This document shows, piece by piece, positions 1,992 through 57,214 of a DNA stretch of 64,000 bases. Where the stretch lies: contig NIVC01003533.1 in assembly GCA_002269645.1 (NCBI GenBank), forward strand, positions 1 through 64,000, in the 5' to 3' direction. The notes beneath the pieces are model-generated. The model worked only from the letters and a program-made list of their open reading frames with translations, searched no databases and was not told where the DNA came from. The position numbers were made by a program, and so were the translations under genes. The stretch's first letter is position 1. Every line of letters begins with the position of its first letter. This DNA comes from Macrostomum lignano. Its lineage: Eukaryota.

Positions 1992-2403
1992 GCGTCCCTG
2001 CTCCCCGCCTCACCTGGAGCCGGCTGGTCAGCAGCGGCGGCAGCCAGCAGCAGCAGCCGGTCTCCGCATCTCCGCAGCTGTCATTCATCAACGCGAGCCT
2101 GCAGCAGGCGGGGCTGTATCTGTGCACCCCCGTCAACTCGCTGGGCACCGGCCAATCTGCCGCTCTTCGGGTCAGCGTCGAGCAGCCGCCTCGGTGGCTG
2201 GCGGCGCCACCGTTGGAAGCCGCACAGCGGACTGTGACGTCACCTGTGAACGCCAGCGACTTCCGGCTGGCCTGTCCGACCGCCTTGGCGCTGCCGGAAG
2301 CGACGGCGCGATGGCTGAAGGACGGCCATCAGCTGGGCGGTTCCGGTGGCTTCGGCTCCAGGTTCAGCGTGGTGTCGCGCTCGGAGCCGGCTGAGGGCGC
2401 CGG
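1992..2403 (+). CDS. Ig-FN3 receptor exon
   Basis: GVPAPRLTW, QAGLYLCTPVNSLG, VSVEQPP, RWLKDG; cccag acceptor, gtgagg donor; phase 1-2. Confidence 0.9.
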
Positions 2404-2415
2404 GTGAGGCTGCGG

Positions 2416-2855
2416 CTTCCATTCTGTAGATGCTTCCATTCTGTAGATGCTTCCATTCTGTAGATGCTTCCATTTCTGTAGATGCTTCCATTCTGTAGAT
2501 GCTTCCATTTCTGTAGATGCTTCCATTCTGTAGATGCTTCCATTCTGTAGATGCTTCCATTCTGTAGATGCTTCCATTTCTGTAGATGCTTCCATTCTGT
2601 AGATGCTTCCATTTCTGTAGATGCTTCCATTCTGTAGATGCTTCCATTCTGTAGATGCTTCCATTCTGTAGATGCTTCCATTCTGTAGATGCTTCCATTC
2701 TGTAGATGCTTCCATTCTGTAGATGCTTCCATTCTGTAGATGCTTCCATTCTGTAGATGCTTCCATTCTGTAGATGCTTCCGTTCTGTAGATGCTTCCAT
2801 TTCTGTAGATGCTTCCGTTCTGTAGATGCTTCCATTTCTGTAGATGCTTCCATTC
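2416..2855. repeat. Intronic minisatellite, 17-18 nt unit (TTCCATTCTGTAGATGC)
   Basis: About 25 tandem copies. Confidence 0.95.
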
Positions 2856-2887
2856 TGTTGATACCTCCAATCTCCCCGTTGTCCCAG

Positions 2888-3024
2888 GATGCTCATCACC
2901 AGCCACCTTCACTTTCGCGGGGCGGACCGGCTCCGACTGCAGCCGGAGGACAACGGGCGCTACCAGTGCGAGCTCAGCAACCGGCACGGGAGGCTGGTAA
3001 CCGAGCTGCTGCTGCTGGTGGAGT
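2888..3024 (+). CDS. Ig-FN3 receptor exon
   Basis: LQPEDNGRYQCELSNRHG Ig F-strand motif; phase 2-1. Confidence 0.9.
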
Positions 3025-3169
3025 GTGAGTGCTGGAACTGTTCGACTGTCACTCATCCAATCAGAGTGACAGATACCCATTCAGCCAGAGTGACAGATTC
3101 CCATCCAGTCAGAGTGACAGACACCCATACAGTCAGAGTGACAAACCTCTTCTCCCCGGTCCCAACCAG

Positions 3170-3678
3170 TTCCTCCCCAGATGGAGCCAGGCCGGAGCAA
3201 GGTGGCCGCTCCATCATCCGGAGATGCTGGCATCACCCTGAGCTGCTCAGCCTCCGGGCAGCCGCCGCCCGTTCTGTCCTGGCAGTTCAACGGAGCCACC
3301 GCCGTCGCTGCCGCCGACGCCACAACAACCGTCGAAGAGGATCCGCCCTACAGACGCTCGAGTCGTCTAGACGGAGTCAGAGCCCTGGGCACCTACTCCT
3401 GCATAGCAACCAACCCCCTGGGCGCCGCTCGCTGGGACATTCTCCTGGTGCCGCCTGGACCGCCCGATCCGCCGGAGTCCCTGACCGTCACCGACGTCGG
3501 CTGGGACTTCGTCACGGTCGTCTGGCAGCGCGGATTCGACGGCGGCAGTCCGGCCCGGCACCGGCTGCTGGCTGCCGAGGTCGGCGGCGCCGGAAATTTC
3601 AGCTGGCCAGCCGACCCGGCGTCGCAGGCAGCGGCCAACGCCACTGGGCTGATGCCAGGGGTCAACTACACGTTTCAG
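3170..3678 (+). CDS. Ig-FN3 receptor exon (last Ig domain plus first FN3)
   Basis: VE/FPPQ junction, LSCSASGQPPPVLSW, GTYSCIATNPLG, PPDPPESLTV...VVWQRGFDGG...GLMPGVNYTFQ; phase 1-0. Confidence 0.9.
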
Positions 3679-3789
3679 GTGCGCAATAAATCTACGACTA
3701 CCATTTACCTTTCGTTCCGCTTACCTCGGCCCTTACCTCAGATCTCTACATTTAATTACCACCGTAATGAATGTTTACCCTCTACTACC

Positions 3790-4035
3790 CTCGCCTCTAA
3801 TTAATCTTGCCTTTAATTAACCTTGCCTCTAATTAACTTTGCCTCTAATTAACCCTGCCTCTAATTACCTTTACCTCTAATTACCCTGCCTCTAATTACC
3901 TTTACCTCTAATTACCCTCGTCTCTATTACCCTTGCCTCTGCCTCTAATTACCCTCGCCTCTAACTACCCTTGCCTCTAATTACCCTTGCCTCTAATTAC
4001 CCTTGCCTCTAATTACCCTTGCCTCTAATTGCCTT
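3790..4035. repeat. Intronic minisatellite, about 16 nt (GCCTCTAATTACCCTT)
   Basis: Tandem repetition. Confidence 0.9.
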
Positions 4036-20225: not shown

Positions 20226-20522
20226 ACCCTCCCCCTAAAGACCACCTCATCTGATTGGCTGTCGATTTTATTTGGTGTTTCAATTGGATGTACACCTCCG
20301 AACGTGCAGCAGTTATAGCTCCTTCCTCACTGTACCAGAGCCTAATTAGGAGAGGTCTTTTATAACAAAAAGGCTTTTGCCGACATGTCTATCTGCCTGG
20401 CTAATCCTTTGCCCAATAAATAAATAAATAAGTTCCATTTAAATAATAGACAGAACTCAGTCAGACATGCATTATTAAAAAATAAGCACCCTCTTACTCT
20501 GTTCCATATTACTTGATTAACA

Positions 20523-23405
20523 ATGCCCACCGTAATAGTACTACCAGCTATCATTATTGCTCTTGTGCTCACGGTTAGTAATGCAGCTCCTTTGTCGCTA
20601 AGAACTGGAGAGCAGCAGGAGCCTCGGCGCTGCCCATCCTTGATAGCTTGCTCGGCCGGCATGCGAGCGCTCTGGTTGTCTGACCCGGACGCTCCCGGTT
20701 GTCCGTTCCGGCTGTGCCTGCTGCCAGCCGACCCGTCTAGCCTCGATTCGATCGATCTCTCTCTGTCTAGATGCCCGCCAGCCGTGCTGACGTCCAACTG
20801 CTACGGCTGGCAAGCGACTGATCCAGCTGTACGCTGGACAGATCCGAGCGGCTGCCCGAAGCTCAACTGTACAGGCGGCGACGCCAGTGGCCCTTCCTGT
20901 CCCGGCTTGGAGACCTGCGCACCTGGCGAGCAATTGGAAACCTGGATTGACTCGGTCAGCGGCTGTCCTACAGGCCAGTGCGTTGAGATTTTCGCTGCCG
21001 CTACTAGCGACCAGGATTCGACAACAGTTACGAAAACTTCCTCTCCCGATGGTGCAAACGAAGCTGAAGAAATATCAACAGTGTTTTACGGAGTGACTTT
21101 TTCAGGGATGTTAAACTACCAACAGACCGAAGCGCCTCCAACCGAAGGCAGCCAGACAACGACCACTGAGACAACAATTTCTGCTGAAATATCCGATTTT
21201 GTATCGATGGCCGCTCAAAAGGACCAACCAGCTGAATCGGCAACAGCTCCAGCTGACCAGCAGGCTGAATCGGGGACAAATCCAGCTGACCAGTCTGCTG
21301 AATCGGTGACAACTCCAGCTGACCAGTCAGCCGAATCGGTGACAACTCCAGCTGACCAGTCAGATGAATCGGTGACAACTCCAGCTGACCAGTCAGCTGA
21401 ATCGGTGTCAACTCCAGCTGACCAGTCAGCTGAATCGGTGTCAACTCCAGCTGACCAGTCAGCCGAATCAGTGACAACTCCAGCTGACCAGTCAGCCGAA
21501 TCAGTGACAACTCCAGCTGACCAGTCAGCTGAATCGGTGTCAACTCCAGCTGACCAGTTAGATGAATCAGTGACAACTCCAGCTGACCAGTTAGATGAAT
21601 CAGTGACAACTCCAGCTGACCAGTCTGCTGAATCGGGGACAACTCCAGCTGACCAGTCTGCTGAATCGGTGTCAACTCCAGCTGACCAGTCAGCCGAATC
21701 AGTGACAACTCCAGCTGACCAGTCTGCTGAATCGGTGTCAACTCCAGCTGACCAGTTAGATGAATCAGTGACAACTCCAGCTGACCAGTTAGATGAATCA
21801 GTGACAACTCCAGCTGACCAGTCTGCTGAATCGGGGACAACTCCAGCTGACCAGTCTGCTGAATCGGTGTCAACTCCAGCTGACCAGCCAGCTGAATCGG
21901 TGACAACTCCAGCTGACCAGTCTGCTGAATCGGGGACAAATCCAGCTGACCAGTCTGCTGAATCAGTGACAACTCCAGCTGACCAGTCAGCCGAATCAGT
22001 GACAACTCCAGCTGACCAGTCAGCTGAATCGGTGTCAACTCCAGCTGACCAGTTAGATGAATCAGTGACAACTCCAGCTGACCAGTTAGATGAATCAGTG
22101 ACAACTCCAGCTGACCAGTCTGCTGAATCGGGGACAACTCCAGCTGACCAGTCTGCTGAATCGGTGTCAACTCCAGCTGACCAGTCAGCCGAATCAGTGA
22201 CAACTCCAGCTGACCAGTCAGCCGAATCAGTGACAACTCCAGCTGACCAGTCAGCTGAATCGGTGTCAACTCCAGCTGACCAGTTAGATGAATCAGTGAC
22301 AACTCCAGCTGACCAGTTAGATGAATCAGTGACAACTCCAGCTGACCAGTCTGCTGAATCGGGGACAACTCCAGCTGACCAGTCTGCTGAATCGGTGTCA
22401 ACTCCAGCTGACCAGCCAGCTGAATCGGTGACAACTCCAGCTGACCAGTCTGCTGAATCGGGGACAAATCCAGCTGACCAGTCTGCTGAATCGGGGACAA
22501 CTCCAGCTGACCAGTCAGCCGAATCGGTGGCAACTCCAGCTGACCAGTCTGCTGAATCGGTGACAACTCCAGCTGACCAGTCTGCTGAATCGGTGTCAAC
22601 TCCAGCTGACCAGTCAGATGAATCGGGGACAACTCCAGCTGACCAGTCAGATGAATCGGTGACAACTCCAGCTGACCAGTCAGCCGAATCAGTGACAACT
22701 CTAGCTGACCAGTCTGCTGAATCGGGGACAACTCCAGCTGACCAGTCAGATGAATCGGTGACAACTCCAGCTGACCAGTCAGATGAATCGGGGACAACTC
22801 CAGCTGACCAGTCAGATGAATCGGTGACAACTTCAGCTGACCAGTCAGCCGAATCAGTGACAACTCTAGCTGACCAGTCTGCTGAATCGGGGACAACTCC
22901 AGCTGACCAGTTAGCCGAATCAGTGACAACTCCAGCTGACCAGTCTGCTGAATCGGTGACAACTCCAGCTGACCAGTCTGCTGAATCGGTGTCAACTCCA
23001 GCTGACCAGTCAGATGAATCGGGGACAACTCCAGCTGACCAGTCAGATGAATCGGTGACAACTCCAGCTGACCAGTCAGCCGAATCAGTGACAACTCTAG
23101 CTGACCAGTCTGCTGAATCGGGGACAACTCCAGCTGACCAGTTAGCCGAATCAGTGACAACTCCAGCTGACCAGTCAGCCGAATCAGTGACAACTCCAGC
23201 TGACCAGTCAGCCGAATCAGTGACAACTCCAGCTGACCAGTCAGCCGAATCAGTGTCAACTCCAGCTGACCAGTCAGCTGAATCGGTGTCAACTCCAGCT
23301 GACCAGTCTGCTGAATCGGGGACAACTCCAGCTGACCAATCTGCTGAATCGGGGACAACTCCAGCTGACCAATCTGCTGAATCGGGGACGACTCTAACGA
23401 TTTAA
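20523..23405 (+). CDS. Secreted mucin-like acidic repeat protein (960 aa): signal peptide, three Cys-rich repeats, about 66 x 11-aa ADQSAESVTTP repeats
   Basis: ATG start, hydrophobic leader ending VSNA, uninterrupted ORF, AATAAA at 23797. Confidence 0.85.
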   Translation: MPTVIVLPAIIIALVLTVSNAAPLSLRTGEQQEPRRCPSLIACSAGMRALWLSDPDAPGCPFRLCLLPADPSSLDSIDLSLSRCPPAVLTSNCYGWQATDPAVRWTDPSGCPKLNCTGGDASGPSCPGLETCAPGEQLETWIDSVSGCPTGQCVEIFAAATSDQDSTTVTKTSSPDGANEAEEISTVFYGVTFSGMLNYQQTEAPPTEGSQTTTTETTISAEISDFVSMAAQKDQPAESATAPADQQAESGTNPADQSAESVTTPADQSAESVTTPADQSDESVTTPADQSAESVSTPADQSAESVSTPADQSAESVTTPADQSAESVTTPADQSAESVSTPADQLDESVTTPADQLDESVTTPADQSAESGTTPADQSAESVSTPADQSAESVTTPADQSAESVSTPADQLDESVTTPADQLDESVTTPADQSAESGTTPADQSAESVSTPADQPAESVTTPADQSAESGTNPADQSAESVTTPADQSAESVTTPADQSAESVSTPADQLDESVTTPADQLDESVTTPADQSAESGTTPADQSAESVSTPADQSAESVTTPADQSAESVTTPADQSAESVSTPADQLDESVTTPADQLDESVTTPADQSAESGTTPADQSAESVSTPADQPAESVTTPADQSAESGTNPADQSAESGTTPADQSAESVATPADQSAESVTTPADQSAESVSTPADQSDESGTTPADQSDESVTTPADQSAESVTTLADQSAESGTTPADQSDESVTTPADQSDESGTTPADQSDESVTTSADQSAESVTTLADQSAESGTTPADQLAESVTTPADQSAESVTTPADQSAESVSTPADQSDESGTTPADQSDESVTTPADQSAESVTTLADQSAESGTTPADQLAESVTTPADQSAESVTTPADQSAESVTTPADQSAESVSTPADQSAESVSTPADQSAESGTTPADQSAESGTTPADQSAESGTTLTI

Positions 23406-23874: not shown

Positions 23875-25097
23875 TGTGGTGATCCAGCGTAGCTAGCATA
23901 GGCTGCTCCTGGGATCCCCTCTTAGTCAGTTAGTGCTTGGGCTGCAGCAGTGGGAGCTGGGCATAGGGCTGTCCCTTCCTCCTCTTCCCTTGTGCAGGCT
24001 CAGGTGTGCAGCTGTCGCGGGACAGGGAGAGAAACTCTCTCCCCCTCTCCCCCTGGCGCAGTCTGCAATGGGCTAAAAATAGAAACATTAGTCAGTGGGA
24101 TATTTCTCCTTTAGTACAGGCTTATTTAGTCAGCGGGAGTGAGAGCATAGCTCTCCGCCCGGGGTAGGATTTCGTGGGGTCTTGGTTGCACTCCTTGCAT
24201 GCGGCAACATGCAAGCAGTGTACCAGCAGGCCATGCGGAGGCTGCATGATGAGGCAGATGTCTTATGGACATCTCCAAGATCGCTCCTGGCTCCGGGTAG
24301 TCCACGGAACTGCCATGGGATCTGCCACGGAACTGCCTCTGAGCTTCCCATTGGCCCTGAGACCCCCGAATTTTAGTATAAATACAGAGTAGGTGAAGGC
24401 CCAAAGAGACCATCCTCTCGGAGACCGCCTGCTTGGCTTCGAGCAAAGGCTAGTATTCCTAGATGCTTTTCCTAGACGAACTAGCTTAGGCAGATCGCTA
24501 GACGCTTTTCCTAGGGATAACCTGCTAACAAATCTTTGTTGCAGCTGCCATTTGCTCATTAAGATTGCCGCAGGTCTTTGTGTCAGCAGCTCGCCAGACC
24601 TTCAACACCGTCTGGACCTGGTCTCGTGGCCTACAACCTACACTGTTGGGCAACATCAACTGACGCACAGTACAGCTTAGGGCGTTTACTGCGACACCAG
24701 TTGAGCTACTAAACGATATTTTAGGATCGGCCTGTGACCGTTACTCACATTAATAAATGTTTAACTGACTTGTTTGTCTTATTTATTTTCTACTTATCAG
24801 TAGGCCTACCTAGGGGTAACCTGTCGAGGATATCACCTGTAGACCTACAAGGTGGCAGCAACCCAACTACCAATACTCGGTTATTATCTAACTGTACTCA
24901 GTGGAGACTAAGAGGGGTTAATTCGGACCATAGTGCTAGACCACTCAGGCCAGCTACCGGCCGTGCTAGATAGCGAGGACAGACAGAGGAAGCAGTAGGC
25001 ACAGCCATAACACTGGTGGCAGCGGTGGGATAACAAGACCTACCCGACCACCCAGGGAAATCCTTGTTATATCTCAGGCGAAAGCCACGGCATAACA
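23875..25097 (+). repeat. 5' LTR (1223 bp)
   Basis: Matches 31662-32884 at a constant offset of 7787; TATAAATA at 24377; AATAAA at 24752. Confidence 0.97.
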
Positions 25098-25098
25098 C

Positions 25099-25116
25099 TG
25101 GTGGCAGCGGTGGGAT
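25099..25116 (+). promoter_or_regulatory. Primer binding site complementary to the 3' end of tRNA-Leu
   Basis: TGGTGGCAGCGGTGGGAT is the reverse complement of ATCCCACCGCTGCCA-CCA; starts 1 nt after the LTR. Confidence 0.9.
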
Positions 25117-25181
25117 CCGGTAAAACGACCACGTCAATCCTTCGTCCACCTACGTCTTAGTCTCACTTAGTAATCATAGCA

Positions 25182-26149
25182 ATGTCTATTGCCAGCAGTC
25201 GTGCTTCAATGGCACCACCTGACGATGGTGCTGGAGCAGGAGCTGAGGAACCGGTACTAGGCGAACGTCTTGATCGTCTCGCTGATGCACTGGAGCGCCA
25301 GCTTGGTATAGGCCAAGTCAGGCAGCATGTCAAGATGGCTAAATACACGCCATCCCAAGACATCCGCACGTGGATCAAAGCCTTCGATCTTCGCTGCGAT
25401 ACCGAAGACATTCGTGCCTGCCACAGGAAGGCGGAGTTGCTCGCCAACCTTGACGTGCACACGGCGTATGCTTCGGTCCTGCGCCTGAACTTGCCAGACC
25501 ATCTGGAGTACGAAGAGTTTAAGGAAGCGCTGATTGAGAGATTCTCAAAGAGAGGCGGCTCACAGGAATTCCGAGAAGATTTCCGCTGCCGAACTCAGCG
25601 CAAGAACGAGGACATTGACGAGTTTGCAGATGCTCTCCGCGAACTCGGAGAACTCGCTTATCCTTATCTCTTGCCAGCTCAGCTCGAATCAGAACTTGTT
25701 GATCAGTTCCTGAAAGGTGTCAGAACTACAATTGAGGCGAGAGAACGGCTGTACTGGGGTCGTCCAGAGACTCTACAGGACGCCAAGTTCGCCTTCAAGC
25801 GCATCGAGACAGCGCGTGAGCTTGCTGCCCGCAGCAGTAAAGACGCACCCTGTCGCAGCCTGGTGGGGACAAAGCTACGGTTCCCCGACAGGACGATGAG
25901 CTTAAGAATCTAATCAGGCATCAGAATGAGGTTCTGCAGAAGCAGCAGCAGATGCTTGAGCAGCTTCTCAAGCAGACGCCAGCCGCACCTGTCAGAGATA
26001 GGCTGCAAGGCATTGTGTGCCACGAGTGCGGCAAACCAGGCCACAAGAGGCCTGACTGTCCTAAGTTCAAGGCTCAGAAGCCGGGAAACGTCCGGGCGGG
26101 GGTTGCCAACCAAAACCCTCTCCAGGGCCAACCCCCGAAGTCGCACTAA
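25182..26149 (+). CDS. gag: gag (capsid-like domain plus CCHC zinc knuckle), one frame break near 25850
   Basis: WIKAFDLRC...YEEFKEALIERF...FRCRTQRKNEDIDEFADALRELGELAY; CHECGKPGHKRPDC. Confidence 0.9.
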
Positions 26150-29100
26150 AGCAGTCTGGAGAGTCTGGCGATACCGTAGACTCTTCCTTTGTAAATAATG
26201 TATATAACTCTGGTGCTGATCCTTATGTAACTGCGCTTATTTTCGGCCAACAGGTTCCCTTGCTTCTCGACAGCGGGAGCAGACTGAACCTGATGGGCCT
26301 TTCTACTTGGCGATTGTTATCGCGCAGTACTGCACATGCATGCGTAGTTACACCTACTTATTCCGATCGTATTCTAACCTATGATGGTTCTGAATTACAG
26401 CTAACCGGTAAGGTTATGCTTGATGTTGTCTTCGGAGATTTCTCAGCTGAAGCTGAATTCTACATTGTAAGCGGCGATCAGGAGAATCTCCTAGGCATTG
26501 ATTTTATGAGGAAGCACTGTCGGACCTTGGAGTTCCAGACAGGAATGCTTACCCTCACTACTGGTACTTGTGTACCCGTGCGCTATACGCGCCGTGAGCC
26601 AACCTCGTGCAGAGTCTATGTTGCCGGAAAACATCAGATTCCTGCTCGAAGTTCTGGCCTCATATCTGTGCAACTGGCACGTGGCAAAGAATCGAATTAT
26701 GGAGTGCCAGCAGTGGTTGAACCACTCAGATCTGGACTCCGCGCTGGGCTTTCCCAGGTCCGCGCATCTGCAGCATTGGTAACGATGCATGAAGGCAAAG
26801 GCTGCATGGAAGTTGTTAATCCTAACAACTTTCCAGTTAATATAGCCAAAGGAGCCTTGGTGGGCCTTGCCACACCGCTCCGGACGCAAGACCTCGAGTA
26901 CTATCCAGAACTGAAAGCAACACCTGTGCGCAAGTTGCACCTAGACGATAACATCAATTCAGCCAGTGACGATTGGATCAATGAGATAGAGATAGGCGAT
27001 TCGATCACGGAGGACCAGAAGTCCCAGGTTCGAGAGCTGATCAGAGAGTCGCGTAATGCGTTCTCCACGCACACTCTTGATCACGGTCTGACTCACCTGG
27101 TGACCCATCAGATCGTCATGCGAGACGAGACTCCAGTTAGGATCCCAGCTCGCAGGGTTCCCCCGCACCTACAAGATCAGGTCAATCAGCTGCTAGATGA
27201 GATGCTAGAGAAGGGCTTGATCAGGCCATCTTATTCAAGCTACAGCTCTCCTATCTTAGTAGTGCCTAAGAAGGACAAATCTGTCCGCATAGTCCATGAC
27301 TATCGCGAGCTGAATGAGAATGCGAATATCGCCCGTATCCGTTGCCATCTATCCAGGAGACGTTTGCATGTCTCCGTGGATCTCAATGGTTCAGCAGCTT
27401 GGATCTTGCTCAAGGGTTCTATCAGATCCCGTTGCGTGAAGAGGATCGTTTTCGCACAGCCTTCTCAGTGATCAATCGAGGTCAGTTTGAGTTCAACGTC
27501 TTGCCTATGGGGCTTCGCGATAGCCCTGGAGCCTTCCAGCGATGCATCAATATGCTGCTAGACGGTATCACTAAGTTCGCCTTAGGATACATGGATGACA
27601 TTGTCATTCATAGTATTGCCTTCGAGGAGCACCTCGAACATCTTCGCGAAATGTTCAGGCGGCTCATTGAAGCCAATCTTAAGCTAAAGCCACGCAAATG
27701 CCATCTGTTTAAGACAGAGTTGCACTATCTCGGACATGTAGTCGATAGACGAGGCATTAGGACTAATGAAGACAAGGTACAGCAGATACTAGACTGGCCG
27801 CGTCCTCAGACAGTCAAGCAGCTGCAGAGCTTTCTAGGTCTCTGTAACTACTATGCCAAATTCGTCAAGAATTACGCCGAAATTGCTGCCCCGTTGCATC
27901 AATTGACTCGGAAGAACCTTGTTGGGTTCAAGGGGCTCTGGACAGAGCAACACTCGAAAGCTTTCGATGAGCTCAAGAAGAAGCTGTGCTCTACTGAGGT
28001 CCTCGCGTACCCAGAGTACAACACAGACCCAGACACAGTCTTCGTCCTGGATTGTGATGCCTCCGGTTTCCGAATCGGCGCCTGTTTAGGCCAGCGCCAA
28101 TCCGATGGTGCGGAGCGGCCTGTTGCCTATTTTAGTCGGAAATTGCGCGAGCCTGAAACGAGGTACAACAACACCAAGCGTGAGCTTTTGGCCGTTGTTG
28201 ACTCGATGAGGCATTTTCGATATTACTTAATCGGCAAGAGATTTGAGGTTAGAACAGACCACAGGGCTCTTCTTTGGCTCATTCGCCAGACTGAAGCCGA
28301 AGGGATCTTGGGTCGTTGGGTCGAACGGCTAAGTGAATTCGACTTTGCTGTCATTCATCGGAAGGGAAGTTTGCACCAGAACGCAGACAGCTTATCAAGA
28401 AAGCCGGACGGTCCGGAGTTCGATGACTGTCGTCCTGGAGCACGGACACCCAACCAGACAGAAAATGAGGCCACTGTACCCTCAGCCCTCGATTAGTCGA
28501 AGACGCCGACCAAGTAACATCCAGCAGTTCTGCCTCGCAGGAATCTCGTATTGCCGTCGCCGGCTCATCATGTTGTCCCTCAGTGGACCGATGTCCGACA
28601 CCCGTTATTGCGGCCGTTTCTGCCGACTCAACATGTTGTTCCTCAGTGAACCGTTGTTCGGCTGGAGCGTCCGAGGCTGTCTGCCAGACTGATGCGACAT
28701 GTTGTCCCTCAGTGGACCGCCGCTCAGAATGGGCAGCCAAGGTTGCTGGTTTAGCTGTGGACTTTGCCCCAGTTGGACGCCACACTACCGCACCTACGGC
28801 CATAGAAGCTGTTCGCCCTCGTGTCTCAGGTGACCTGACCGCAGGAATCCGGACCGACGACGCAGCAAGGCCATTATCTGCTTCAATAACGGAATCAGCG
28901 AACCGTAGCGTTAGTGAGGATGTTCCTCCACGCTGTCGTGTTCTGCTTAGTGATTTTCTGTCCGAACCTCTGAAGCGAGACCAACTGCTCCTCGAGCAGC
29001 AGAAGGACCCGGACATTGAGTTCGTCAGAAATCTTTTAGCGACTAGTTCGCCCAAGCCGTCCTTTGACGCCCGACTACGTCTTAGTAGGGATACGCGCAA

Positions 29101-31454
29101 CCTACTAGGCTACTTTGAGATGTTGCGGCTAGTAGACAACCTGCTCGTCTACGATGAAGACATAGCAGACCGTCCACCGCGCATTGTGCTGCCGAAGAGT
29201 CTAGATGACCAGGTGTTCAAAGAGCTCCATGATGCTCCCTTGAGTGGACACCTTGGCGAAACTAAGACCTATCTTCGGGTTAGACAAAGGTTTTGGAGGC
29301 CGTCTTTGAGCAAAGCGGTTAAGGCCTACGTGGCCCGATGTCGAGTTGCCTGGAGAGCAAGACTCGCCGTCGCGAAGCCGTGCCCGTGCAGAGCTTCCCA
29401 GTCTGTGAAGTATGGGACGGCTACACTGCGACGTTGTCGGCCCAATCTCGCAGCCTTCGCGAGCTGGCCACCGCTATATTCTGACTCTGTGCGATGCTAC
29501 TTCAAAATACCCTTTTGCGTTCCCTATGCGGAACCAGAAGACCAAGACCGTAGTCAAGATTCTTCAGGAAAGATTGTTTCCGGAGTACGGTGTACCAGCG
29601 TGGCTGCACACCGACCAAGGAACGAATTTCACTGGAAAGGACTTTAAGAAGTTTTGTGAGCTGTACGGCATTAGGCACACGACTACAACGCCGTATAATC
29701 CTAGTTCGAATGGCCAGGTGGAAAATCTCAACAAGACAATCAAGAGTGTACTCACGTGCTTGCTGGAGAAGAATCACCAAGATTGGGATACCTTCCTCCC
29801 AGCATGCATGATCGCTCTGCGATCTAGCGTTCACCCGGTTACAGGGTTTACGCCCTACTTCTTGGTCTTTGGAAGAGAATTCCGGATGCCCATTGATAAT
29901 GAGCTTCGGGTCCCACCTGAATATCCGGACTTGCCAACGTACGTCCAAGACTTCCAGAAGAGACTAGAGGAAGCTAATCAGTTAGCCCAGGACCGTGTGA
30001 AGCTGCATCAAGAACTTCGCGATGAACATTATGAGAATCGCCCGAAGGCCAAGCAGCTCTCACCGGGTGACCTAGTCTTCCTGAACAATCCAGTCTTAGA
30101 TCAGTCTTGGGAAGCGCAGAAATTTCACAGACCGCGCAAGGCTGTGTATGAAGTAGTAGAGCGCAAAGGAGAAGTTGTCTACAAGATCAGACCTCGCCTC
30201 CGGAATCCTAGGGCTCGTCGAGAGGAGTTGGTGGTGCACCGTCGCAATATGCTACCGGTTCCGCAAGCTGACTATCCAGAGCCAGCTGGCCGGGCAGCTG
30301 AGCACCGTGCTGGGCCGCCGCGTAAGCCTCGCGTTGCCATAGAAACCACTGCCTCTCAGAATACCGGCGAAGTCGCCGATGACGTTGACGAGCTCGATGA
30401 CGATAATAACGACTGGGCTCCGCGCTACTTTCTGCGTCCGGCCGCAGCACTAGCAGCGATCCCAGAAGTCGCCGAACCTGAAATGAATAAAAATGGGGTA
30501 GCTGTTCATGAGCAACCTGAAACACCTAGGGACATAGAACAGCCCGAAGCGGTGCCCCCGGACCCTCAGCCTGTTGCTGAGCGCCCGCGGAGAGACCGCC
30601 GAGCCCCAGATAGACTAATAATGAATCCTAGAGCTAAATCTTATGTTGCTAGGATCAGGGATGCGCTCGCCTCTTCAATAAGGCGCTTCTTTCCGCATTC
30701 CAGCACCATCATGAGCGAGGACGAGATGCCTCTAGAGCAGCAGCTCTCTCTGTCAGCTTCGAACGACTCTTTCGAGCCGATCGAGTCATCATCACCGCGT
30801 CCCGATGAAGGGCGGGTGAAGACCCAGCCAACGCCAATACCGTCTGGCCCGCCGGTTACAGCGCCCATCGGCATTACCCGCCGTACATTATTGCGAGTCG
30901 ACACGAACGTCCAGGCTGTGGCCGGGCCTCAAACAGAGCCAACCCCTAGGAAGACGGCCCTGTTGGAGAAGCCCCCGGCCAGAGGCCGGGCAGCGGCAGG
31001 ACCATCGAGGAGTCGCTCCCGGCAGCGCGCGGCCAACTGGCAGCCCGCTGGACGGCCGACGGCCTTGGAAAGGCTGGGAGGGCGAAGCCGCTCCCCTCCT
31101 AGCAAGGTGGCACCGGCCAGCAGTGGCGGGACGGCCTGTAGCAGCCAGTCGCAGCCGGCCAGGGAGCCTATCAAGCAGATGATCGCGGCCATTCTGCTGA
31201 AAGCCGCGTATACCGGAGAAGTAACGGCCTGGTCCACACCGCAAACCATTGCACTAAAGGCTATGGCCGAGGATGAGCGGCGCGCCCTCATCAACGAAGC
31301 CTTCACGAGAACGCGCTCTTTGCTCATGCCATATCGGCATTACGCCGTGGCGTTGGAGGCCGCAGTACGCAGAGCAGCTCAAGATCTCGGCCGCATGCCG
31401 GCCCTATCAGCCGAGGCCCTCGCTCTGCTGAATACGGCGAGGCCGGCCCATTAA
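26065..31454 (+). CDS. pol: pol (protease, RT, RNase H, integrase) with four frame breaks and a long C-terminal extension
   Basis: LLDSGS protease; LDLAQGFYQI, GYMDDI RT; LDCDAS, RELLAVV, TDHRAL RNase H; HDAPLSGHLG...RCRVC, CDVVGP, HTDQG, NGQVENLN integrase. Confidence 0.93.
26083..26163 (+). promoter_or_regulatory. -1 programmed ribosomal frameshift signal (G GGA AAC plus predicted H-type pseudoknot)
   Basis: Heptamer is in the gag frame; pol is in the -1 frame and open from 26065; 9-bp and 8-bp stems read directly. Confidence 0.85.
30711..31454 (+). CDS. Extra 247-aa non-env module (possible ORF3), in frame with integrase
   Basis: Own ATG 7 nt after a strong 3' splice site; acidic N-terminus, Arg/Ser-rich middle, helical-looking C-terminus; no transmembrane segment or signal peptide. 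Confidence 0.6.
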   Translation: MSEDEMPLEQQLSLSASNDSFEPIESSSPRPDEGRVKTQPTPIPSGPPVTAPIGITRRTLLRVDTNVQAVAGPQTEPTPRKTALLEKPPARGRAAAGPSRSRSRQRAANWQPAGRPTALERLGGRSRSPPSKVAPASSGGTACSSQSQPAREPIKQMIAAILLKAAYTGEVTAWSTPQTIALKAMAEDERRALINEAFTRTRSLLMPYRHYAVALEAAVRRAAQDLGRMPALSAEALALLNTARPAH

Positions 31455-31649
31455 TGGAGACGCTCGTCTACAGTAGCTCATTGTGGGGCATAAGGCCTCA
31501 CAGGCGTATTGGCTCAGGCCTTTCAGTATAACTATCAGCTTCTGTGTATTGGCCTATGGCCTTTCTCTAATTGATACCTACATGACTTATTAAATACATT
31601 GACTTACCTTACTTGATGAAGAACCTCCTGGTGTCGCTTCTTCTTTTTC

Positions 31650-31661
31650 AGGTGGGGTGGG
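31650..31661 (+). promoter_or_regulatory. Polypurine tract
   Basis: AGGTGGGGTGGG directly before the TG of the 3' LTR. Confidence 0.75.
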
Positions 31662-32884
31662 TGTGGTGATCCAGCGTAGCTAGCATAGGCTGCTCCTGGG
31701 ATCCCCTCTTAGTCAGTTAGTGCTTGGGCTGCAGCAGTGGGAGCTGGGCATAGGGCTGTCCCTTCCTCCTCTTCCCTTGTGCAGGCTCAGGTGTGCAGCT
31801 GTCGCGGGACAGGGAGAGAAACTCTCTCCCCCTCTCCCCCTGGCGCAGTCTGCAATGGGCTAAAAATAGAAACATTAGTCAGTGGGATATTTCTCCTTTA
31901 GTACAGGCTTATTTAGTCAGCGGGAGTGAGAGCATAGCTCTCCGCCCGGGGTAGGATTTCGTGGGGTCTTGGTTGCACTCCTTGCATGCGGCAACATGCA
32001 AGCAGTGTACCAGCAGGCCATGCGGAGGCTGCATGATGAGGCAGATGTCTTATGGACATCTCCAAGATCGCTCCTGGCTCCGGGTAGTCCACGGAACTGC
32101 CATGGGATCTGCCACGGAACTGCCTCTGAGCTTCCCATTGGCCCTGAGACCCCCGAATTTTAGTATAAATACAGAGTAGGTGAAGGCCCAAAGAGACCAT
32201 CCTCTCGGAGACCGCCTGCTTGGCTTCGAGCAAAGGCTAGTATTCCTAGATGCTTTTCCTAGACGAACTAGCTTAGGCAGATCGCTAGACGCTTTTCCTA
32301 GGGATAACCTGCTAACAAATCTTTGTTGCAGCTGCCATTTGCTCATTAAGATTGCCGCAGGTCTTTGTGTCAGCAGCTCGCCAGACCTTCAACACCGTCT
32401 GGACCTGGTCTCGTGGCCTACAACCTACACTGTTGGGCAACATCAACTGACGCACAGTACAGCTTAGGGCGTTTACTGCGACACCAGTTGAGCTACTAAA
32501 CGATATTTTAGGATCGGCCTGTGACCGTTACTCACATTAATAAATGTTTAACTGACTTGTTTGTCTTATTTATTTTCTACTTATCAGTAGGCCTACCTAG
32601 GGGTAACCTGTCGAGGATATCACCTGTAGACCTACAAGGTGGCAGCAACCCAACTACCAATACTCGGTTATTATCTAACTGTACTCAGTGGAGACTAAGA
32701 GGGGTTAATTCGGACCATAGTGCTAGACCACTCAGGCCAGCTACCGGCCGTGCTAGATAGCGAGGACAGACAGAGGAAGCAGTAGGCACAGCCATAACAC
32801 TGGTGGCAGCGGTGGGATAACAAGACCTACCCGACCACCCAGGGAAATCCTTGTTATATCTCAGGCGAAAGCCACGGCATAACA
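31662..32884 (+). repeat. 3' LTR
   Basis: No mismatch to the 5' LTR found by eye; followed by the AATT TSD. Confidence 0.97.
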
Positions 32885-43196: not shown

Positions 43197-43778
43197 CTAC
43201 GGTGGCAATAAGGCTAGCAGCGCAGTACACCTGGCCAGTACAATCTCATTATTGCAATAGCAGGTGCGGCCAAGGTAGGGCGGCCTAATAGTGAGACTGT
43301 CGCCTAGAGTCAGGCTGAGCGAGTCCTCGCCACCCACGGCCAAGTCGATGCGGTGCTTGGCAAACCAGGCCCGCACCTGGTCGCGGCGTTGGATTGTCGC
43401 CGATCCCACAGCGGAGTCGTCGAGTTCTTCGCCGTCGGCGCCGCACCCGACAGCCAGCTTGTCGATGTCGATCCGCTGCTGCTCAGTTGCCGGCTGAGCG
43501 CCCGGCACCGGACAGACTTCGACAGTGGCTCCAGCCAGTAGGAAGTGCACTTGCCGGTCATCCAGGTCAACCAGCACCCGGGTCCGGCTGACCGGGTCCA
43601 CCGTGTACAGCCAACCCGTGAACTGGCGACCGTCGGCGCAGGACACTCGTTGAAGCTGGTACAGCTGCGACATGAAGCTGGCGCATTCAGCACTGCTGGC
43701 TTCTTCACAGGGACCGGTGTAGACACATGGGGCACCGGTACTGGCACCGGTATTAGCACCGGAAACAGATTCACTCAT
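43197..43778 (-). CDS. GEMIN6: Gemin6 (SMN complex, Sm-like fold), intronless; alternative ATG at 43787
   Basis: GWLYTVDPVSRTRVLV, VRAWFAKHRI, LTIRPPY...CYCNNEIVLAR match Gemin6 motifs; AATAAA at 43056-43051. Confidence 0.85.
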   Translation of the reverse strand: MSESVSGANTGASTGAPCVYTGPCEEASSAECASFMSQLYQLQRVSCADGRQFTGWLYTVDPVSRTRVLVDLDDRQVHFLLAGATVEVCPVPGAQPATEQQRIDIDKLAVGCGADGEELDDSAVGSATIQRRDQVRAWFAKHRIDLAVGGEDSLSLTLGDSLTIRPPYLGRTCYCNNEIVLARCTALLALLPP

Positions 43779-44094
43779 TAGGCTCATGCCACTGCCGCAG
43801 GCGGGCCAGCAAGTCGCTCTTCTCCTTGTGCTTGTGCACCAGACAGTCCAGCAGACTCCGCTGCGTCTCAGAGTCCAGGTCGATACCCTCGGCCTGCTCA
43901 ATCTGCTGTCTGGCTGTCTCGAGTTTTTGCCGAAGCTCCTGGATTTTTCCCGTAGTGCCGGGCGAATCGCTGGCGTAGTGAATGAATATGTCGCGAATCA
44001 GCGGCCCGAATACCAGATCCACCTGCTGGATGGGGGCTGAGGCGGCTTCCTGATGCTGGCGGTGCTGCTGCTGCGGTTGCTGCTGGTGATGCAT
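43771..44094 (-). CDS. MED9: Mediator subunit 9, intronless
   Basis: FGPLIRDI...DSP...ELRQKLETARQQIEQAEGIDLDSETQ...KSDLL is the MED9 coiled-coil pattern. Confidence 0.82.
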   Translation of the reverse strand: MHHQQQPQQQHRQHQEAASAPIQQVDLVFGPLIRDIFIHYASDSPGTTGKIQELRQKLETARQQIEQAEGIDLDSETQRSLLDCLVHKHKEKSDLLARLRQWHEPNE

Positions 44095-48404: not shown

Positions 48405-48962
48405 TCAATTAGCCGCATGCAGCTGCACCACAGACCGGTGGCCAAAGGGGCTGGCGTACAAGATGCCCACCTGCCTATAGACGTGTTTAGTAATGCCAGC
48501 ATCTACCAGATAGGTGGAGCCATAGCCAGCGTCAACGGGCACCGGTAGGCAGTACTGCAGATTAATTTTGCACTCCAACCTAGCCGGATTTCGTTGCTGA
48601 GGACACACGCCAACAACCGGAGCCCTGTTGGAGCGGCACCACAGGGCCAGGGTGTGCTCCGGGCTGTCCGGCTCGCTAGTGGCCAGAACTATGTAGTCTA
48701 GCAGCCAGGGCAGGTCGCGGCAGCTGTGCACCACTGGACAGCCGGTGGTGCGGAACAGCTGTACTTCCTGGGCCAGCTCACTTGAGGCCGCCAGTTCGCG
48801 TTCGCTGCAGTACACGTGCACTCGAACCTCTTTATTAGCCAGGTGACGAGCCATTGATAATCCCATTAGGCCGCGCCTGCCTGGCCCCACTAGCACGGCC
48901 ACCTGCGGCAGCTGGTGCTGATTGCCCGGCTGCAGCCGGCTGGCCCCGCCCATCTGCTGCAC
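48405..48962 (-). CDS. EDC3: EDC3 exon 4 (YjeF_N domain, terminal)
   Basis: SRLQPGNQHQLPQVAVLVGPG...ARHLAN...ASPFGHRSVVQL*; phase 0; AATAAA at 48384-48379. Confidence 0.9.
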   Translation of the reverse strand: MQQMGGASRLQPGNQHQLPQVAVLVGPGRRGLMGLSMARHLANKEVRVHVYCSERELAASSELAQEVQLFRTTGCPVVHSCRDLPWLLDYIVLATSEPDSPEHTLALWCRSNRAPVVGVCPQQRNPARLECKINLQYCLPVPVDAGYGSTYLVDAGITKHVYRQVGILYASPFGHRSVVQLHAAN

Positions 48963-49064
48963 CTGGATTGGGTGCCAGGTTGGAAGTCAAGGTCAACTGA
49001 GGTCAGATACACAGAGCCTTAATATCAATGCTCAAAGAGTCTAAATGTTATAAACTAGTTGGAA

Positions 49065-49245
49065 TTTGAGTCATAGCACATAAAAGCACAGCAATTTGAG
49101 TCATAGCCCATACAAGCACAGCAATTTGAGTCATAGCCCAAATAGCACTGCAATTTGAGTCATAGCCCATAAAAGCACAGCAATTTGAGTCAAAGCTCAT
49201 AAAAGAACTGCAATTTGAGTCATAGCTCATAAAAGAACTGCAATT
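49065..49245. repeat. 30-nt minisatellite in EDC3 intron 3
   Basis: CAATTTGAGTCATAGC core, about 6 copies. Confidence 0.85.
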
Positions 49246-49253
49246 CAGCTCAC

Positions 49254-49415
49254 CAGAAACTCGGACGCGCTGCGGCCAAAAGCTTCGGCTAAGCGGGCGG
49301 CCGTTAAGCCGGCTTTATCAGCGGCAGACAGGACAGCCACCCGGAGCTCCTCGGTCACAGACGGCACGGGGAGACCCACGTCTGTGGCAAACTGGCAGTC
49401 CACTTTGCATGGCAC
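49254..49415 (-). CDS. EDC3: EDC3 exon 3
   Basis: FATDVGLPVPSVTEELR...AGLTAARLAEAFGRSAS; canonical splice sites; phase 0-0. Confidence 0.9.
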
Positions 49416-49434
49416 CTGAGGAGACGGAACGCGG

Positions 49435-50395
49435 TTTGGGGCGATTCTCAGTGAGATTTATTAGGGGCGATTCTCAGAGAGATTTAGTAGGGGGCGATTC
49501 TAAGGGAGATTTATTAGAGGGCGATCTCAGGGAGATTTAGTAGGGGGCGATTCTCAGGGAGATTTATTAGAGGGCGATCTCAGGGAGATTTAGTAGGGGG
49601 CGATTCTCAGGGAGATTTATTAGAGGGCGATCTCAGGGAGATTTAGTAGGGGGCGATTCTCAGGGAGATTTATTAGAGGGCGATCTCAGGGAGATTTAGT
49701 AGGGGGCGATTCTCAGGGAGATTTATTAGAGGGCGATCTCAGGGAGATTTAGTAGGGGGCGATTCTCAGGGAGATTTATTAGGGGGGGGGGAATCTCAGG
49801 GAGATTTAGTAGGGGGCGATTCTCAGGGAGATTTATTAGAGGGCGATCTCAGGGAGATTTAGTAGGGGGCGATTCTCAGGGAGATTTATTAGGGGGGGGG
49901 AATCTCAGGGAGATTTATTAGGGGGGAGATTCTCAGTGAGATTTATTAGGAGGAGATTCTCAGTGAGACTTATTAGGGGGAGATTCTCAGGGAGATTTAT
50001 TAGGGGGAGATTCTCAGGGAGATTTATTAGGGGGGGGATTCTTAGTGAAATTTATTAGGGGAGATTCTCAGGGAGATTTATTAGGGGGAGATTCTCAGGG
50101 AGATTTATTAGGGGGGGGGGATTCTTAGTGAAATTTATTAGGGGAGATTCTCAGGGAGATTTATTAGGGGGGGGGGATTCTTAGTGAAATTTATTAGGGG
50201 AGATTCTCAGGGAGATTTATTAGGGGGGAGGGAGATTCTCAGTGAAATTTATTAGGGGAGACTCTCAGGGAGATTTATTAGGGGGAGATTCTCAGGGAGA
50301 TGTATTAGGGGCGATTCTCAGGGAGATGTATTAGGGGGCGATTCTCAGGGAGATTTATTAGGGGGGAGATTCTCAGGGAGATTTATTAGGGGGGA
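49435..50395. repeat. G-rich repeat of about 20 nt (GGGAGATTTATTAGGGG) filling EDC3 intron 2
   Basis: Tandem repetition. Confidence 0.9.
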
Positions 50396-50400
50396 GTTAC

Positions 50401-50742
50401 CTGGATAGAGGGCGCGGCGGGAGCGGCACCGCCGGGCAGCAGGACGCTCTGGTCTGGCCGCAGCTTCGGCTCCGGCTGGGGTGGCTGGGCGGTGCGCACC
50501 AGGTCCGGCTCGGGAGTCTGGCCGCTGTCCACCATGGCGTAGAAGGCCTGCTTGTCGAACAGCGCCAGGTTGCCTTCGAAATCGAAATCATCCATCATGT
50601 CGCCGGCTGACATGCTGAAGGCGTTGTGCCTTGGCTGCTGCTTTTGGGCCGATGCATTCTGCTGCGGCAGTTTGCTGCCCCGGTAGGGGACGAATGCGCT
50701 GCCGCCATTGTTGCCGGGGACGCTGGCGCTAGTGTCTTGTTG
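50401..50742 (-). CDS. EDC3: EDC3 exon 2 (FDF domain)
   Basis: DDFDFEGNLALFDK. Confidence 0.93.
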
Positions 50743-51275
50743 CTATGGAAACAGAGGGAAAGGACATTAGCAGTGCATAAATAACAGCTATAATCGATTG
50801 CCAATCTAAAGAACTAAATAGCTCGATCTGTCAATCAATCAATCTATCTATTCGAATATCTATCTATCTATCTATCTACCTACTTCTATTTTTCCAGCTG
50901 CCTTAATCGTTTCCGGTGATCTTGTGTGCGTGCATTCAGCTTGATTGGCTGCGGCAAGCAAGCTCGAAAGAGCTCGCTTCGCTCGCTCTTTCTCGCTATC
51001 TACCATCTATTGCCAAGACCTGCACCGGAGCGGTTACGAAAATTAGATTTCTCGGTAGTTGCTCGCACTCTTTTGCACTACTTGAGTAGTCTGATTTTCG
51101 TTCGGCATGGCTGGTTCCAGCAGGTAGTTCCTCTGGATAAAAGCGCTTACCGCGCCCATTGGCTTTCCAGCTGCCTTAATCGTTTCCGGTGATCTTGTGT
51201 GCGTGCTTTCAGCTTGATTGGCTGCGGCAAGCAAGCTCGAAAGAGCTCGCTTCGCTTGCTCTTTCTCGCTATCTA

Positions 51276-51317
<42 letters not shown>

Positions 51318-51366
51318 CCTAACAGCGGGTAATCATAGCTGAATAGATATACTGTAAGCTACGCAC

Positions 51367-51894
51367 TTGTCGATATTGCTGCTCTCCAATCGGCGTCTTT
51401 CTAGTTGGAGTAACGCCTCGTTGCTGCTGCTGCTGCTGCATCGGTGAATCCTTAGGCTGCTGTTGCTTCTTCTTGTTGCTACCAGAGAAGTGCGACGGGG
51501 CCTTAACAGGCGGGCTGGAGCAAATATAAGCAGGTGTTGCATTTGGTATGCTCATCAGCTTCTCGGCTGTGCGCTGCTGCTTTGCAATAGCAGCAGCCGA
51601 AGTGGCTGAAGCTGAGGTTGCTGTCAACTGCTGCTTTTTTGGTTGTTGCTTTGCGGTTTCTGTCGAAGCAGAAGTGGTAGCGGCAGCGGCCAGAGCATCC
51701 TTGGACTGCAGCATGACAATGCTAACGATCGATGACCTGTGCAGTGTCACCTCACTGGTATCGCTGGGCAGTCCATTGCGGCTGGCATCGCGCAGTGTCA
51801 CCTTCTCGTTGCTAACGTCAACAACTGTGCCAACAAATGTGCCTAGTAGTGGGCCACAGTCTAACTGCAGCTGGGCTCCAATGAACTCACCCAT
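51367..51894 (-). CDS. EDC3: EDC3 exon 1 (LSm domain plus low-complexity linker)
   Basis: MGEFIGAQLQLDCGPLLGTFVGTVVDV; gtgcgt donor; phase 0. Confidence 0.9.
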
Positions 51895-52988
51895 GCTATA
51901 GATTGATTGGAATTTACTGTGTACTGTGGAACATCAATTGATCAGGTGGATTAAATTAACTTTTCTTGGAATTCACATGAAGAGTTCTACCATAGCTTGG
52001 TTACAGGAACACACATTTCCCATATCTAGTAATAGGAGCCATGCCCACCCCCCCCCCACTTTTTTAGCAACTGTTGATTTATTTTTCTTCAAATAGAATG
52101 CTAAAATTGTTATAATTTTTTAATCCATTTAAGTATTTGCTACTTTAATATTTTATAAGAAGTGGAGACTATTGGATTACAAAATCAGTCAAAATAAAGA
52201 GAAAGAGGTTAAATCCATCTTTTTGTTTATTTGAGAAAAGTTAGATTATGCAAGTTATCTAAACTTGTAACTAGGTATTTTGCATTTATGTCATTAAGTG
52301 AATATAATATAAGTTTGTTTTTTGTTAGGGTCTATTAATAAATGAATCCCTTTAACTACTATCTAATATATAACAATGTTAGCTGAATAATTGTTTCTCT
52401 AACACTTTTTCTTAACCTTTTATCTAACCAATTCCCCCTAGTCATTCTGTTTTTAAACAAAAATTACCTTGCAAATCTCAAGGGATTTTGACCAAAACTT
52501 TTATAAATTTCTAAACCAGTTAAGTATTGCTTTATTTAATTTTGTTTATTTACAATTACAGAGTTGTGATCATTTGAATTTATATTTTCCAATCTAAATG
52601 AATCTAGCCAACTACTTGCCAACCATAGTGTCCAGTGAATATCTCTGCTTTTTTTTGGTTGGCATTTCATGAGGGTTCTTTATAGGTTTATAGTTTATAT
52701 GTTAAATATTCTGGGACAGTTTAAAACAATCTGCACAATGAAAACAATAAAATCAGTCTGATTTCTTTTCTTAAATATATTAATCTTTTAATGAAACTTT
52801 TCAAATATATATATGAAATATAAATCTTAACAAAACAACTATAAGCTAATATTATGAAACACCTGTTATTACTAAAATAACTATACTTATGAATTTTTTA
52901 ATTTTTCATCAAAAATAAAATGTGTCTATCACAAAAGCAACTTGGTTACTTGTCACCAAAACTACTATTTATTACTATGCTTGGGCGC

Positions 52989-56530: not shown

Positions 56531-57212
56531 GTGAGACTGGGGTGTGGGATCTATTGCAGACTGGGGTGTGGGATCTATTGCAGACTGGAGTGTGTGATCT
56601 ATTGCAGACTGGGGTGTGTGATCTATTGCAGGCTGGGGTGTGGGATCTATTGCATACTGGGGTGTGGGATCTATTGCAGACTGGGTGTGGGATCTATTGG
56701 AGACTGGAGTGTGGGATCCGTAATCGATAATAAAGTGGGATCTATTGTAGATGGGTGTGAGATCCATTTCAGACTGGGGTATGGGATCTATTTCATACTG
56801 GGGTGTGGGATCTATTGGAGGCTGGGTGTGGGGATCTATTGAATATTGAGTTGTGGGATCTGTTGGAGACATGGGATGTGGGATCTGTTGGAGACATGGG
56901 GTGTGGGATCTGTTGGAGACATGGGGTGTGGGATCTATTGGAGACTGAGACTGGGGTGTAAGATCTATTGTATGCTGGGTGTGGGATCTATTGCAGACTG
57001 GGGTGTGGGGATCTATTGCAGACTGGGGTGTGGGATCTATTGCAGACTGGGGGGTGTAGGATCTATTGCAGACTGGGGTGTGGGATCTATTGCAGACTGG
57101 GGGGTGTAGGATCTATTGCAGACTGGGGTGTGGGGATCTATTGTATGCTGGGTGTGGGATCTAGTTTATACTGGGGGTAGGCTCTATTGGACACTGGGGT
57201 GTGGGATCTATT
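56531..57212. repeat. About 24-nt minisatellite (GTGTGGGATCTATTGCAGACTGGG)
   Basis: Begins right after the T-box donor. Confidence 0.9.
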
Positions 57213-57214
57213 GA

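Follow-up and report, generated by a model that had tools for sequence, protein, structure and literature searches.

A third gene in a Gypsy retrotransposon of Macrostomum lignano, probably released from behind pol by spliced-leader trans-splicing

The subject of this report is a Ty3/Gypsy long terminal repeat (LTR) retrotransposon that spans positions 23875-32884 of a 64,000-nucleotide stretch of the Macrostomum lignano genome (contig NIVC01003533.1 of assembly GCA_002269645.1, positions 1 to 64,000 of the forward strand; hereafter the window). Behind its pol region this element carries a 247-residue reading frame, here called ORF3, which is most likely a separate gene that is released in the manner of an operon by the trans-splicing of a host spliced leader (SL), because the acceptor that precedes it is found joined to this leader and no cis-joint from the candidate donor at 25120 reaches it in any of four runs compared. 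An earlier note on this DNA, made from its letters alone, had proposed an undescribed non-env accessory protein with its own acceptor and start codon, expressed by cis-splicing from a donor just behind the primer-binding site (PBS); the protein module that it described is upheld below, and the route by which it is expressed is replaced by another. The features on which the argument depends are as follows.

30271..30710, plus strand: integrase tail, acidic and proline-rich, with RPRRDRRAPDRL at 30582; free of stops into ORF3
30686..30703, plus strand: pyrimidine tract with its AG, where the SL is trans-spliced in a contig of run X5
30711..31454, plus strand: ORF3, 247 residues, with an acidic N-terminus, an arginine/serine (RS)-rich disordered centre and a predicted five-helix C-terminal domain
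30719..31542, plus strand: variable cassette, apparently swapped for sequence less than 85% alike in sister copies, as judged from contig joints
30478..31607, minus strand: probable antisense GT-AG intron, from joints in X1 and X5, which spans ORF3 together with its acceptor
24539..24544, plus strand: second SL acceptor, TTGCAG, inside the LTR, with a counterpart in the 3' LTR

In one contig the host spliced leader joins the acceptor of ORF3

The acceptor sequence was assessed by its pyrimidine content and by its joints in public contigs, which were Logan assemblies of four of the 24 listed runs (X1, X5, X6 and X18) compared with positions 23875-31661. Pyrimidines occupy 13 of the 15 nucleotides upstream of the acceptor, which places it second among the 320 (C/T)AG sites of the element, tied with one other, and it lies 7 nucleotides before the ATG at 30711, so the strong acceptor of the earlier note is indeed present. 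It ends in TTCCAG and thus matches the trans-acceptor motif [T/C]TNCAG of M. lignano, which was published together with the 35-nucleotide SL sequence (PMC8629364; papers cited here by PMC number are represented by excerpts, to which statements drawn from them refer). In run X5, a 903-nucleotide contig (number 24) consists of 23 loose nucleotides followed by an unbroken match to 30703-31582, and these loose nucleotides, together with the G at 30703, are the last 24 nucleotides of the 35-nucleotide leader. Among the matches listed for the four runs, the leader is the sole partner joined at 30703/30704.

A junction ending at 30704, which had been suggested as a check on cis-splicing, is therefore found, but it leads to the host leader and not to 25120. 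The donor CG|GTAAAA that had been proposed at 25120 does exist, but it fits only six of nine consensus positions, and eight plus-strand sites score 7; no joint from it or from the PBS region to 30704 occurs among the matches listed for any of the four runs. Joints of the kind seen in the C. elegans element Cer1, in which cis-spliced exons are shared with GAG, were likewise not seen in the four runs, from contigs that lose rare forms. Within the LTR, 9-nucleotide loose ends at 24544 in X1 and X5 correspond to the leader's 3' end, and their source may be solo, diverged or other LTR copies.

Judged against operons, the SL is joined to a matching acceptor just 5' of an ATG (in one contig of one run), and the upstream gene has no stop before this acceptor. 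The leader ends in an AUG that is out of frame with ORF3 and opens a frame of only 34 codons, whereas the 247-codon frame begins at 30711, so the start at 30711 would be reached by leaky scanning or re-initiation. Contig depths offer weak hints only and were not used as evidence: in X1 the depth is 17.9 just 5' of the acceptor and 24.6 and 28.8 for two downstream cassettes, X5 apparently has no cover at 30635-30702, X6 has no step, and in X18 the depth is lower across ORF3 than across pol.

ORF3 continues the integrase frame and has its own coding signature

ORF3 is in frame with the integrase reading frame (29409-31454), without a stop between them, and 278 open codons follow RPRRDRRAPDRL, which we take to be a motif typical of pol ends. 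A run of this length has a chance of about 3e-4 by base composition and was stop-free in 0 of 2000 shuffles. Both the extension of some 280 residues past pol and the in-frame 247-codon frame from ATG 30711 that the earlier note had described are present. The G+C content of third codon positions is 0.69 in ORF3, whereas in gag, pol and the linker it lies at 0.49-0.56. Contigs without a single difference cover the junction in X1 (30450-30704), X6 (30545-31454) and X18 (30619-31153), so faulty assembly does not account for the open junction, and because it is identical in contigs of three of the four runs, the family as a whole has ORF3 linked in frame to integrase.

Two further observations concern the integrase tail. 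An AATAAA at 30486-30491 lies 217 nucleotides 5' of the trans-acceptor, at a place where the frame is still open and where it shares nucleotides with the antisense pyrimidine tract; polyadenylation there would yield a gag-pol RNA without a stop codon, and no use of this signal was seen among the contig matches listed for the four runs. In addition, positions 30447-30470 read L-A-A-I-P-E, which fits the LxxIxE consensus for docking to PP2A-B56 that HTLV-1 integrase uses; the AIPEV of this stretch is retained in an M. lignano protein, P0003, and the spacing of the leading leucine is not.

The ORF3 protein matches no family in the collections searched

The composition of ORF3 agrees with that first described. 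Its residues 1-35 include nine Asp or Glu and no hydrophobic stretch, residues 86-147 hold 12 Lys or Arg and eight RS or SR dipeptides, and the peak 19-residue hydropathy of 1.03 indicates that there is no transmembrane segment. The signal peptide and C-terminal transmembrane anchor by which errantiviral and retroviral env proteins are recognized are thus both missing, and the module, which behaves as a separate unit, can be regarded as non-env. The helical-looking C-terminal region is also recovered, as five helices predicted at residues 151-242 by single-sequence models whose mean confidence (pLDDT) is only 53-62.

Beside the RS box, the centre of ORF3 reads T-A-L-E-R-L-G, with A-L-E-R-L-G at residues 118-123 and the RLG itself at residue 121. 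This recalls the ALYREF-binding site of ICP27, S-V-W-S-R-L-G (PMC3017119), and the type-1 ALYREF motif, phi-x-x-R-L-G, where phi is a hydrophobic residue (PMC13370473). A hydrophobic-x-RLG pattern arises in 2.2% of 20000 shuffles, and since chance produces such patterns in 2.2-11% of shuffles, depending on how they are defined, and the pattern was chosen after the fact, this likeness is a lead only.

Searches for relatives were negative. ORF3 had no homologue among 4387 candidates at E<=1, among 7999 longer candidates at E<=10 (weak evidence) or among 1.84 billion representatives at E<=0.001, and none among viral contigs. Comparison with Pfam gave only DUF1843, at a below-cut-off E of 0.085, comparison with NCBIfam only one below-cut-off match (E 0.062), and comparison with PDB sequences one match at E 2.3. 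A metagenome match (L001) was rejected as a 20-codon chance match inside a bacterial ABC-transporter locus. Fold searches returned no match at E<=0.001; the best fold score (VIA) was a Z of 8.3, to dynein, in a range that is common for helical bundles, and it is evidence neither for a known fold nor for a new one. A weak likeness to CID domains (Z 6.8, root-mean-square deviation 2.8, 87 residues aligned) was also found, and the C-terminal fold of the ICP27-homology type was absent from the listed fold matches of a low-confidence model (pLDDT 62). The earlier description of the protein as undescribed therefore stands with respect to Pfam, PDB, NCBIfam and the large protein collections, but it needs to be qualified because the CERV protein of Cer1 offers a close precedent in both function and architecture.

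Sister copies apparently carry a different cassette at the position of ORF3

Contig joints suggest that the 3' module varies among copies of the element. A contig of X1 matches the element up to 30718 and resumes at 31543; loose ends of at least 255 nucleotides precede 31543 in X5 and X6, and a 980-nucleotide X6 record (32) matches 31543-31661 only. From these joints we infer sister copies with near-identical gag-pol in which another cassette, about 0.8 kb long, starts just after the ATG. Because these copies apparently diverge 8 nucleotides into ORF3 (the joint at 30718), the boundary of the module coincides with the acceptor and the ATG. In X18, joints at a depth of 32.2 omit 30779-30932 and 30986-31079, leaving patches up to residue 23, at residues 75-92 and from residue 124; the omitted parts may be deletions or diverged stretches. 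The best protein relative is P0003, which is 77% identical across integrase; together with the leader match it places the host as M. lignano or a species very near to it.

A probable antisense intron spans ORF3 and its acceptor

A joint from 30475 to 31606 with CT..AC ends was present in X1 and X5, two of the four runs. It most likely marks an antisense intron, because in addition to these ends it has a minus-strand donor, AAG|GTAAGT, that scores nine of nine (one of two such donors) and the best acceptor of the minus strand (rank 1 of 330 sites). Foreign sequence is also joined to the same antisense acceptor in X5, and the other nine-of-nine antisense donor lies at 27096. The downstream antisense exon opens no long reading frame, its longest first frame being 89 codons, and the antisense RNA may be driven either by the element or by read-through from the host.

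ORF3 compared with known systems

The closest precedent for ORF3 is CERV of Cer1, which is likewise a non-env 3' reading frame with an SL-bearing RNA. The mRNA that carries the Cer1 frame is cis-spliced and occurs both in a form with SL1 and in one that lacks it, and the 8-kb RNA is not trans-spliced (PMC3315495); CERV is required for export of the Cer1 genomic RNA (PMC10309623). In the CERV mRNA, SL1 lies near the 5' end and cis-splicing leaves N-terminal peptides shared with GAG, and the protein has 517 residues, H, M and G domains and a Cys loop (PMC3315495; PMC10309623). The ORF3 RNA, in contrast, has the leader joined directly at an internal acceptor behind pol, and no similarity between the two proteins could be detected. 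ORF3 may work like CERV, but its size, cysteine content and domain plan, and the joining of the leader directly behind pol, set it apart from the CERV family.

ORF3 also resembles ICP27/ORF57 and HIV Rev, which share a disordered basic or RS region, an adjoining RLG-type motif (a candidate in ORF3) and a helical C-terminal domain (predicted in ORF3), as well as a need to export unprocessed RNA that would apply to ORF3 too (PMC3017119; Rev as cited in PMC3315495). However, no sequence or fold match to these proteins was found, and ORF3 has Leu in place of the Trp of the ICP27 triad. Among LTR elements, the Oikopleura Tor env is a third frame, behind pol, with its own subgenomic RNA, but this RNA arises by cis-splicing or from an internal promoter, and its product is a transmembrane glycoprotein, unlike that of ORF3 (PMC4402516). 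The third post-pol frames of bdelloid LTR elements show family-specific gain and loss, yet they are env-like or encode GDSL or DEDDy proteins, whereas no transmembrane or enzyme signature is present here (PMC5408684). The operons of M. lignano, in which a downstream gene is freed by the 35-nucleotide leader at [T/C]TNCAG (PMC8629364), are similar in mechanism; here the upstream frame runs into the acceptor without a stop, and a retrotransposon takes the place of a host transcription unit.

In the literature searched, with subscription journals mostly outside its coverage, neither ORF3 nor direct SL trans-splicing to a post-pol frame of an LTR element was described. SL trans-splicing has reportedly been proposed for downstream frames of bdelloid Terminons, which are said to be giant telomeric elements of the Penelope-like type and not LTR elements. 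The main text of a 2025 paper on LTR elements of M. lignano contains none of the strings 'splic', 'orf', 'accessory' and 'antisense' (PMC12801592).

A model for the expression and function of ORF3

If ORF3 is a third gene joined to the SL, its protein is tentatively best seen as a nuclear adaptor for export of the unprocessed genomic RNA of the element, a reading to which we give clearly less than an even chance. Trans-splicing at 30703/30704, the joint seen in one contig, would produce a monocistronic capped ORF3 RNA. Its precursor would be the RNA that starts from the LTR, processed in the way of a downstream gene in an operon, or possibly the product of an internal promoter in pol. The LTR-driven RNA could then either remain intact for translation of gag-pol and for packaging or be trans-spliced to give an SL-capped ORF3 mRNA that ends in the 3' LTR, and packaged genomic RNA would have to avoid trans-splicing at both 24544 and 30703. 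In an action modelled on CERV, Rev and ICP27, the RS-rich basic centre would bind RNA, the RLG would recruit ALYREF and the TREX complex, and the helical domain would give specificity or assembly; translation of gag-pol would yield the in-frame fusion of integrase and ORF3 in minor amounts. Export is favoured because leaving the nucleus would take assistance for an RNA whose trans-acceptors are unused, and a protein with an RS box, an RLG and a helical domain fits this role.

Several observations weigh against this model or against a separate ORF3 gene. The joint at 30703 occurs in one contig of one of the four runs, among the matches listed; none of the runs is recorded as RNA (for three this was guessed, and the fourth is unlabelled), and contigs carry no information on strand or level and lose rare forms. 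In flatworms the SL is also added at a low level to internal sites, which splits coding sequences, and SL-bearing retrocopies with partial leaders are present in their genomes (PMC12582326). P0003 as annotated ends about 80 residues past the integrase C-terminal domain and lacks the ORF3 module, and no homologue of ORF3 was found in any sequence collection searched. Plain RLG arises in 11% of shuffles, its selection was post hoc and the phi position is only an Ala. ORF3 has 247 residues, one Cys and only helices, as opposed to the 517 residues and Cys loop of CERV. Finally, no single element like the Rev response element stood out among the 135 windows of an RNA-structure scan.

Other explanations place the same data differently. 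ORF3 could be expressed from the SL in the same way and act as an anti-silencing factor or host antagonist, directed for example at piRNA/PIWI, a HUSH-like system or nuclear decay, in which case the exchange of cassettes would mirror an arms race. The near-identical gag-pol contigs with 3' cassettes less than 85% alike and the lack of homologues suit such a role, as does the antisense spliced RNA, which covers pol and skips ORF3 and would on this view spare the ORF3 mRNA from targeting; since no motif or fold indicates a silencing factor, and the RS box and RLG suit RNA processing better, we consider it rather unlikely. It is also unlikely, by a similar reckoning but rated slightly lower, that the joint reflects cryptic trans-splicing, to which a strong acceptor without a partner donor is open, and that the 247 codons are a dispensable, fast-drifting tail of integrase with no function of its own. 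Trans-splicing is said to require nothing but an unpaired acceptor (PMC8629364), genuine internal SL sites exist (PMC12582326), the joint is in a single contig among the matches listed, there is no stop between integrase and ORF3, and no homologue was found; against this, an ATG follows the acceptor by 7 nucleotides, the long frame is open where no shuffle was, the third-position G+C content shifts, a folded helical domain is predicted and the cassette boundary falls right after the ATG.

The two remaining alternatives concern the form in which ORF3 is made. The fusion of integrase and ORF3 could be the functional form, its helical domain serving integration targeting or chromatin tethering, like a chromodomain or the Ty5 targeting domain, and the SL form being a by-product or dominant-negative. 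The continuous frame in contigs of three of the four runs and the weak CID likeness are in line with this, but such Z values are common among helical bundles, the presumed pol-end motif sits before the module and the integrase of P0003 ends without it, and the fusion is improbable as the functional form. Most improbable is an env-like arrangement in which the main ORF3 mRNA is cis-spliced from near the PBS: there is a GT donor-like site at 25120, contigs lose rare forms and flatworm acceptors often serve cis- and trans-splicing alike (PMC12582326), but the donor is weak, the four runs hold no such joint and the SL remains the only joint at the acceptor among the matches listed. Release of ORF3 as a separate gene by the SL is accordingly the reading retained here.

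The host element and neighbouring genes

The element is young: its LTRs, of 1223 nucleotides each with TG...CA ends, are mutually identical, AATT at either flank represents the target duplication, and a PBS at 25099 and a polypurine tract (PPT) were also found. Its further parts are listed here.

23875..25097, plus strand: 5' LTR, TG...CA, identical to the 3' LTR, with TATA at 24377 and AATAAA at 24752
25014-25031 and 32801-32818: duplicate PBS within each LTR
25099..25116, plus strand: PBS, which we take to be of tRNA-Leu type
25182..26149, plus strand: gag, its frame disrupted upstream of the CCHC knuckle in this copy
26065..30270, plus strand: pol (protease, reverse transcriptase, RNase H, integrase), in four overlapping frames in this copy
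31632..31661, plus strand: acceptor-like site (AG ends at 31651) and purine-rich PPT
31662..32884, plus strand: 3' LTR, in which 32539 probably marks the poly(A) signal for the ORF3 mRNA

Pol matches RVT_1, RT_RNaseH, Integrase_H2C2 and rve of Pfam in the Gypsy order, with a protease match below cut-off, and the match of gag to Retrotrans_gag is weak (E 1e-3, below cut-off); relative to public contigs, this copy has short indels within gag and pol. The inner PBS copy lies 85 nucleotides upstream of the LTR end and is preceded by its own CATAACA end motif, and because a second copy is present inside each LTR, it seems that the LTR has grown by taking in an older PBS and leader. Loose contig ends at 25010-25011 and 25043-25053 suggest a 40-nucleotide stretch that is common to other elements. 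The site at 31632-31651, directly 5' of the PPT, has 14 of 15 pyrimidines and ranks first among the 320 plus-strand (C/T)AG sites; no use of it as an acceptor at 31651 was seen among the contig matches listed for the four runs. The long stretch of low complexity that links RNase H to integrase holds three short imperfect repeats (positions 28500-28720 of the window), and P0003 has a long linker at the same place that is unrelated in sequence. No heat-shock element (HSE) was found in the LTR, and two motifs of the element were not found in the supplement text on six HSE families. In the RNA-structure scan, 27 of the 135 windows of 120 nucleotides had z<=-2 relative to dinucleotide shuffles, more than expected by chance, and these were spread across the element, many of them inside gag and pol (25300-29860).

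The remainder of the window holds host genes and a second retrotransposon.

766-3804: Ig/FN3 cell-surface gene, a host neighbour
43197-43997, minus strand: Gemin6-like gene, from matches below cut-off
48405-51933, minus strand: YjeF_N-containing gene, presumably Edc3-like
57200-60350: reverse transcriptase of a non-LTR retrotransposon

In addition, a 962-codon reading frame at 20517-23405 is mucin-like, with a signal-peptide-like start, a Cys-rich N-terminus and a long 11-residue tandem repeat, and ends about 470 nucleotides short of the insertion site of the element.

Significance

The third protein of LTR elements usually comes from a cis-spliced RNA or from one begun at an internal promoter. 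Direct SL trans-splicing at a post-pol acceptor would be another route, open to any element in the many animals with trans-splicing. Genes released in this way are missed because they resemble integrase tails. Taken as a whole, the proposal that this Gypsy lineage is a retrotransposon operon, in which the SL releases an orphan export or anti-silencing gene that is swapped as a cassette among otherwise near-identical copies and skipped by an antisense intron, and in which these features together form an SL-based early/late switch with an origin separate from those of Rev and CERV, is doubtful, with roughly the standing of a minority view among the possibilities considered. If ORF3 is an export adaptor, it would be an independent invention of a Rev- or CERV-like function, in a flatworm that is amenable to RNAi and transgenesis. 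In this way, the escape of genomic RNA from trans-splicing and nuclear retention, and the fast turnover of cassettes, would become directly testable.

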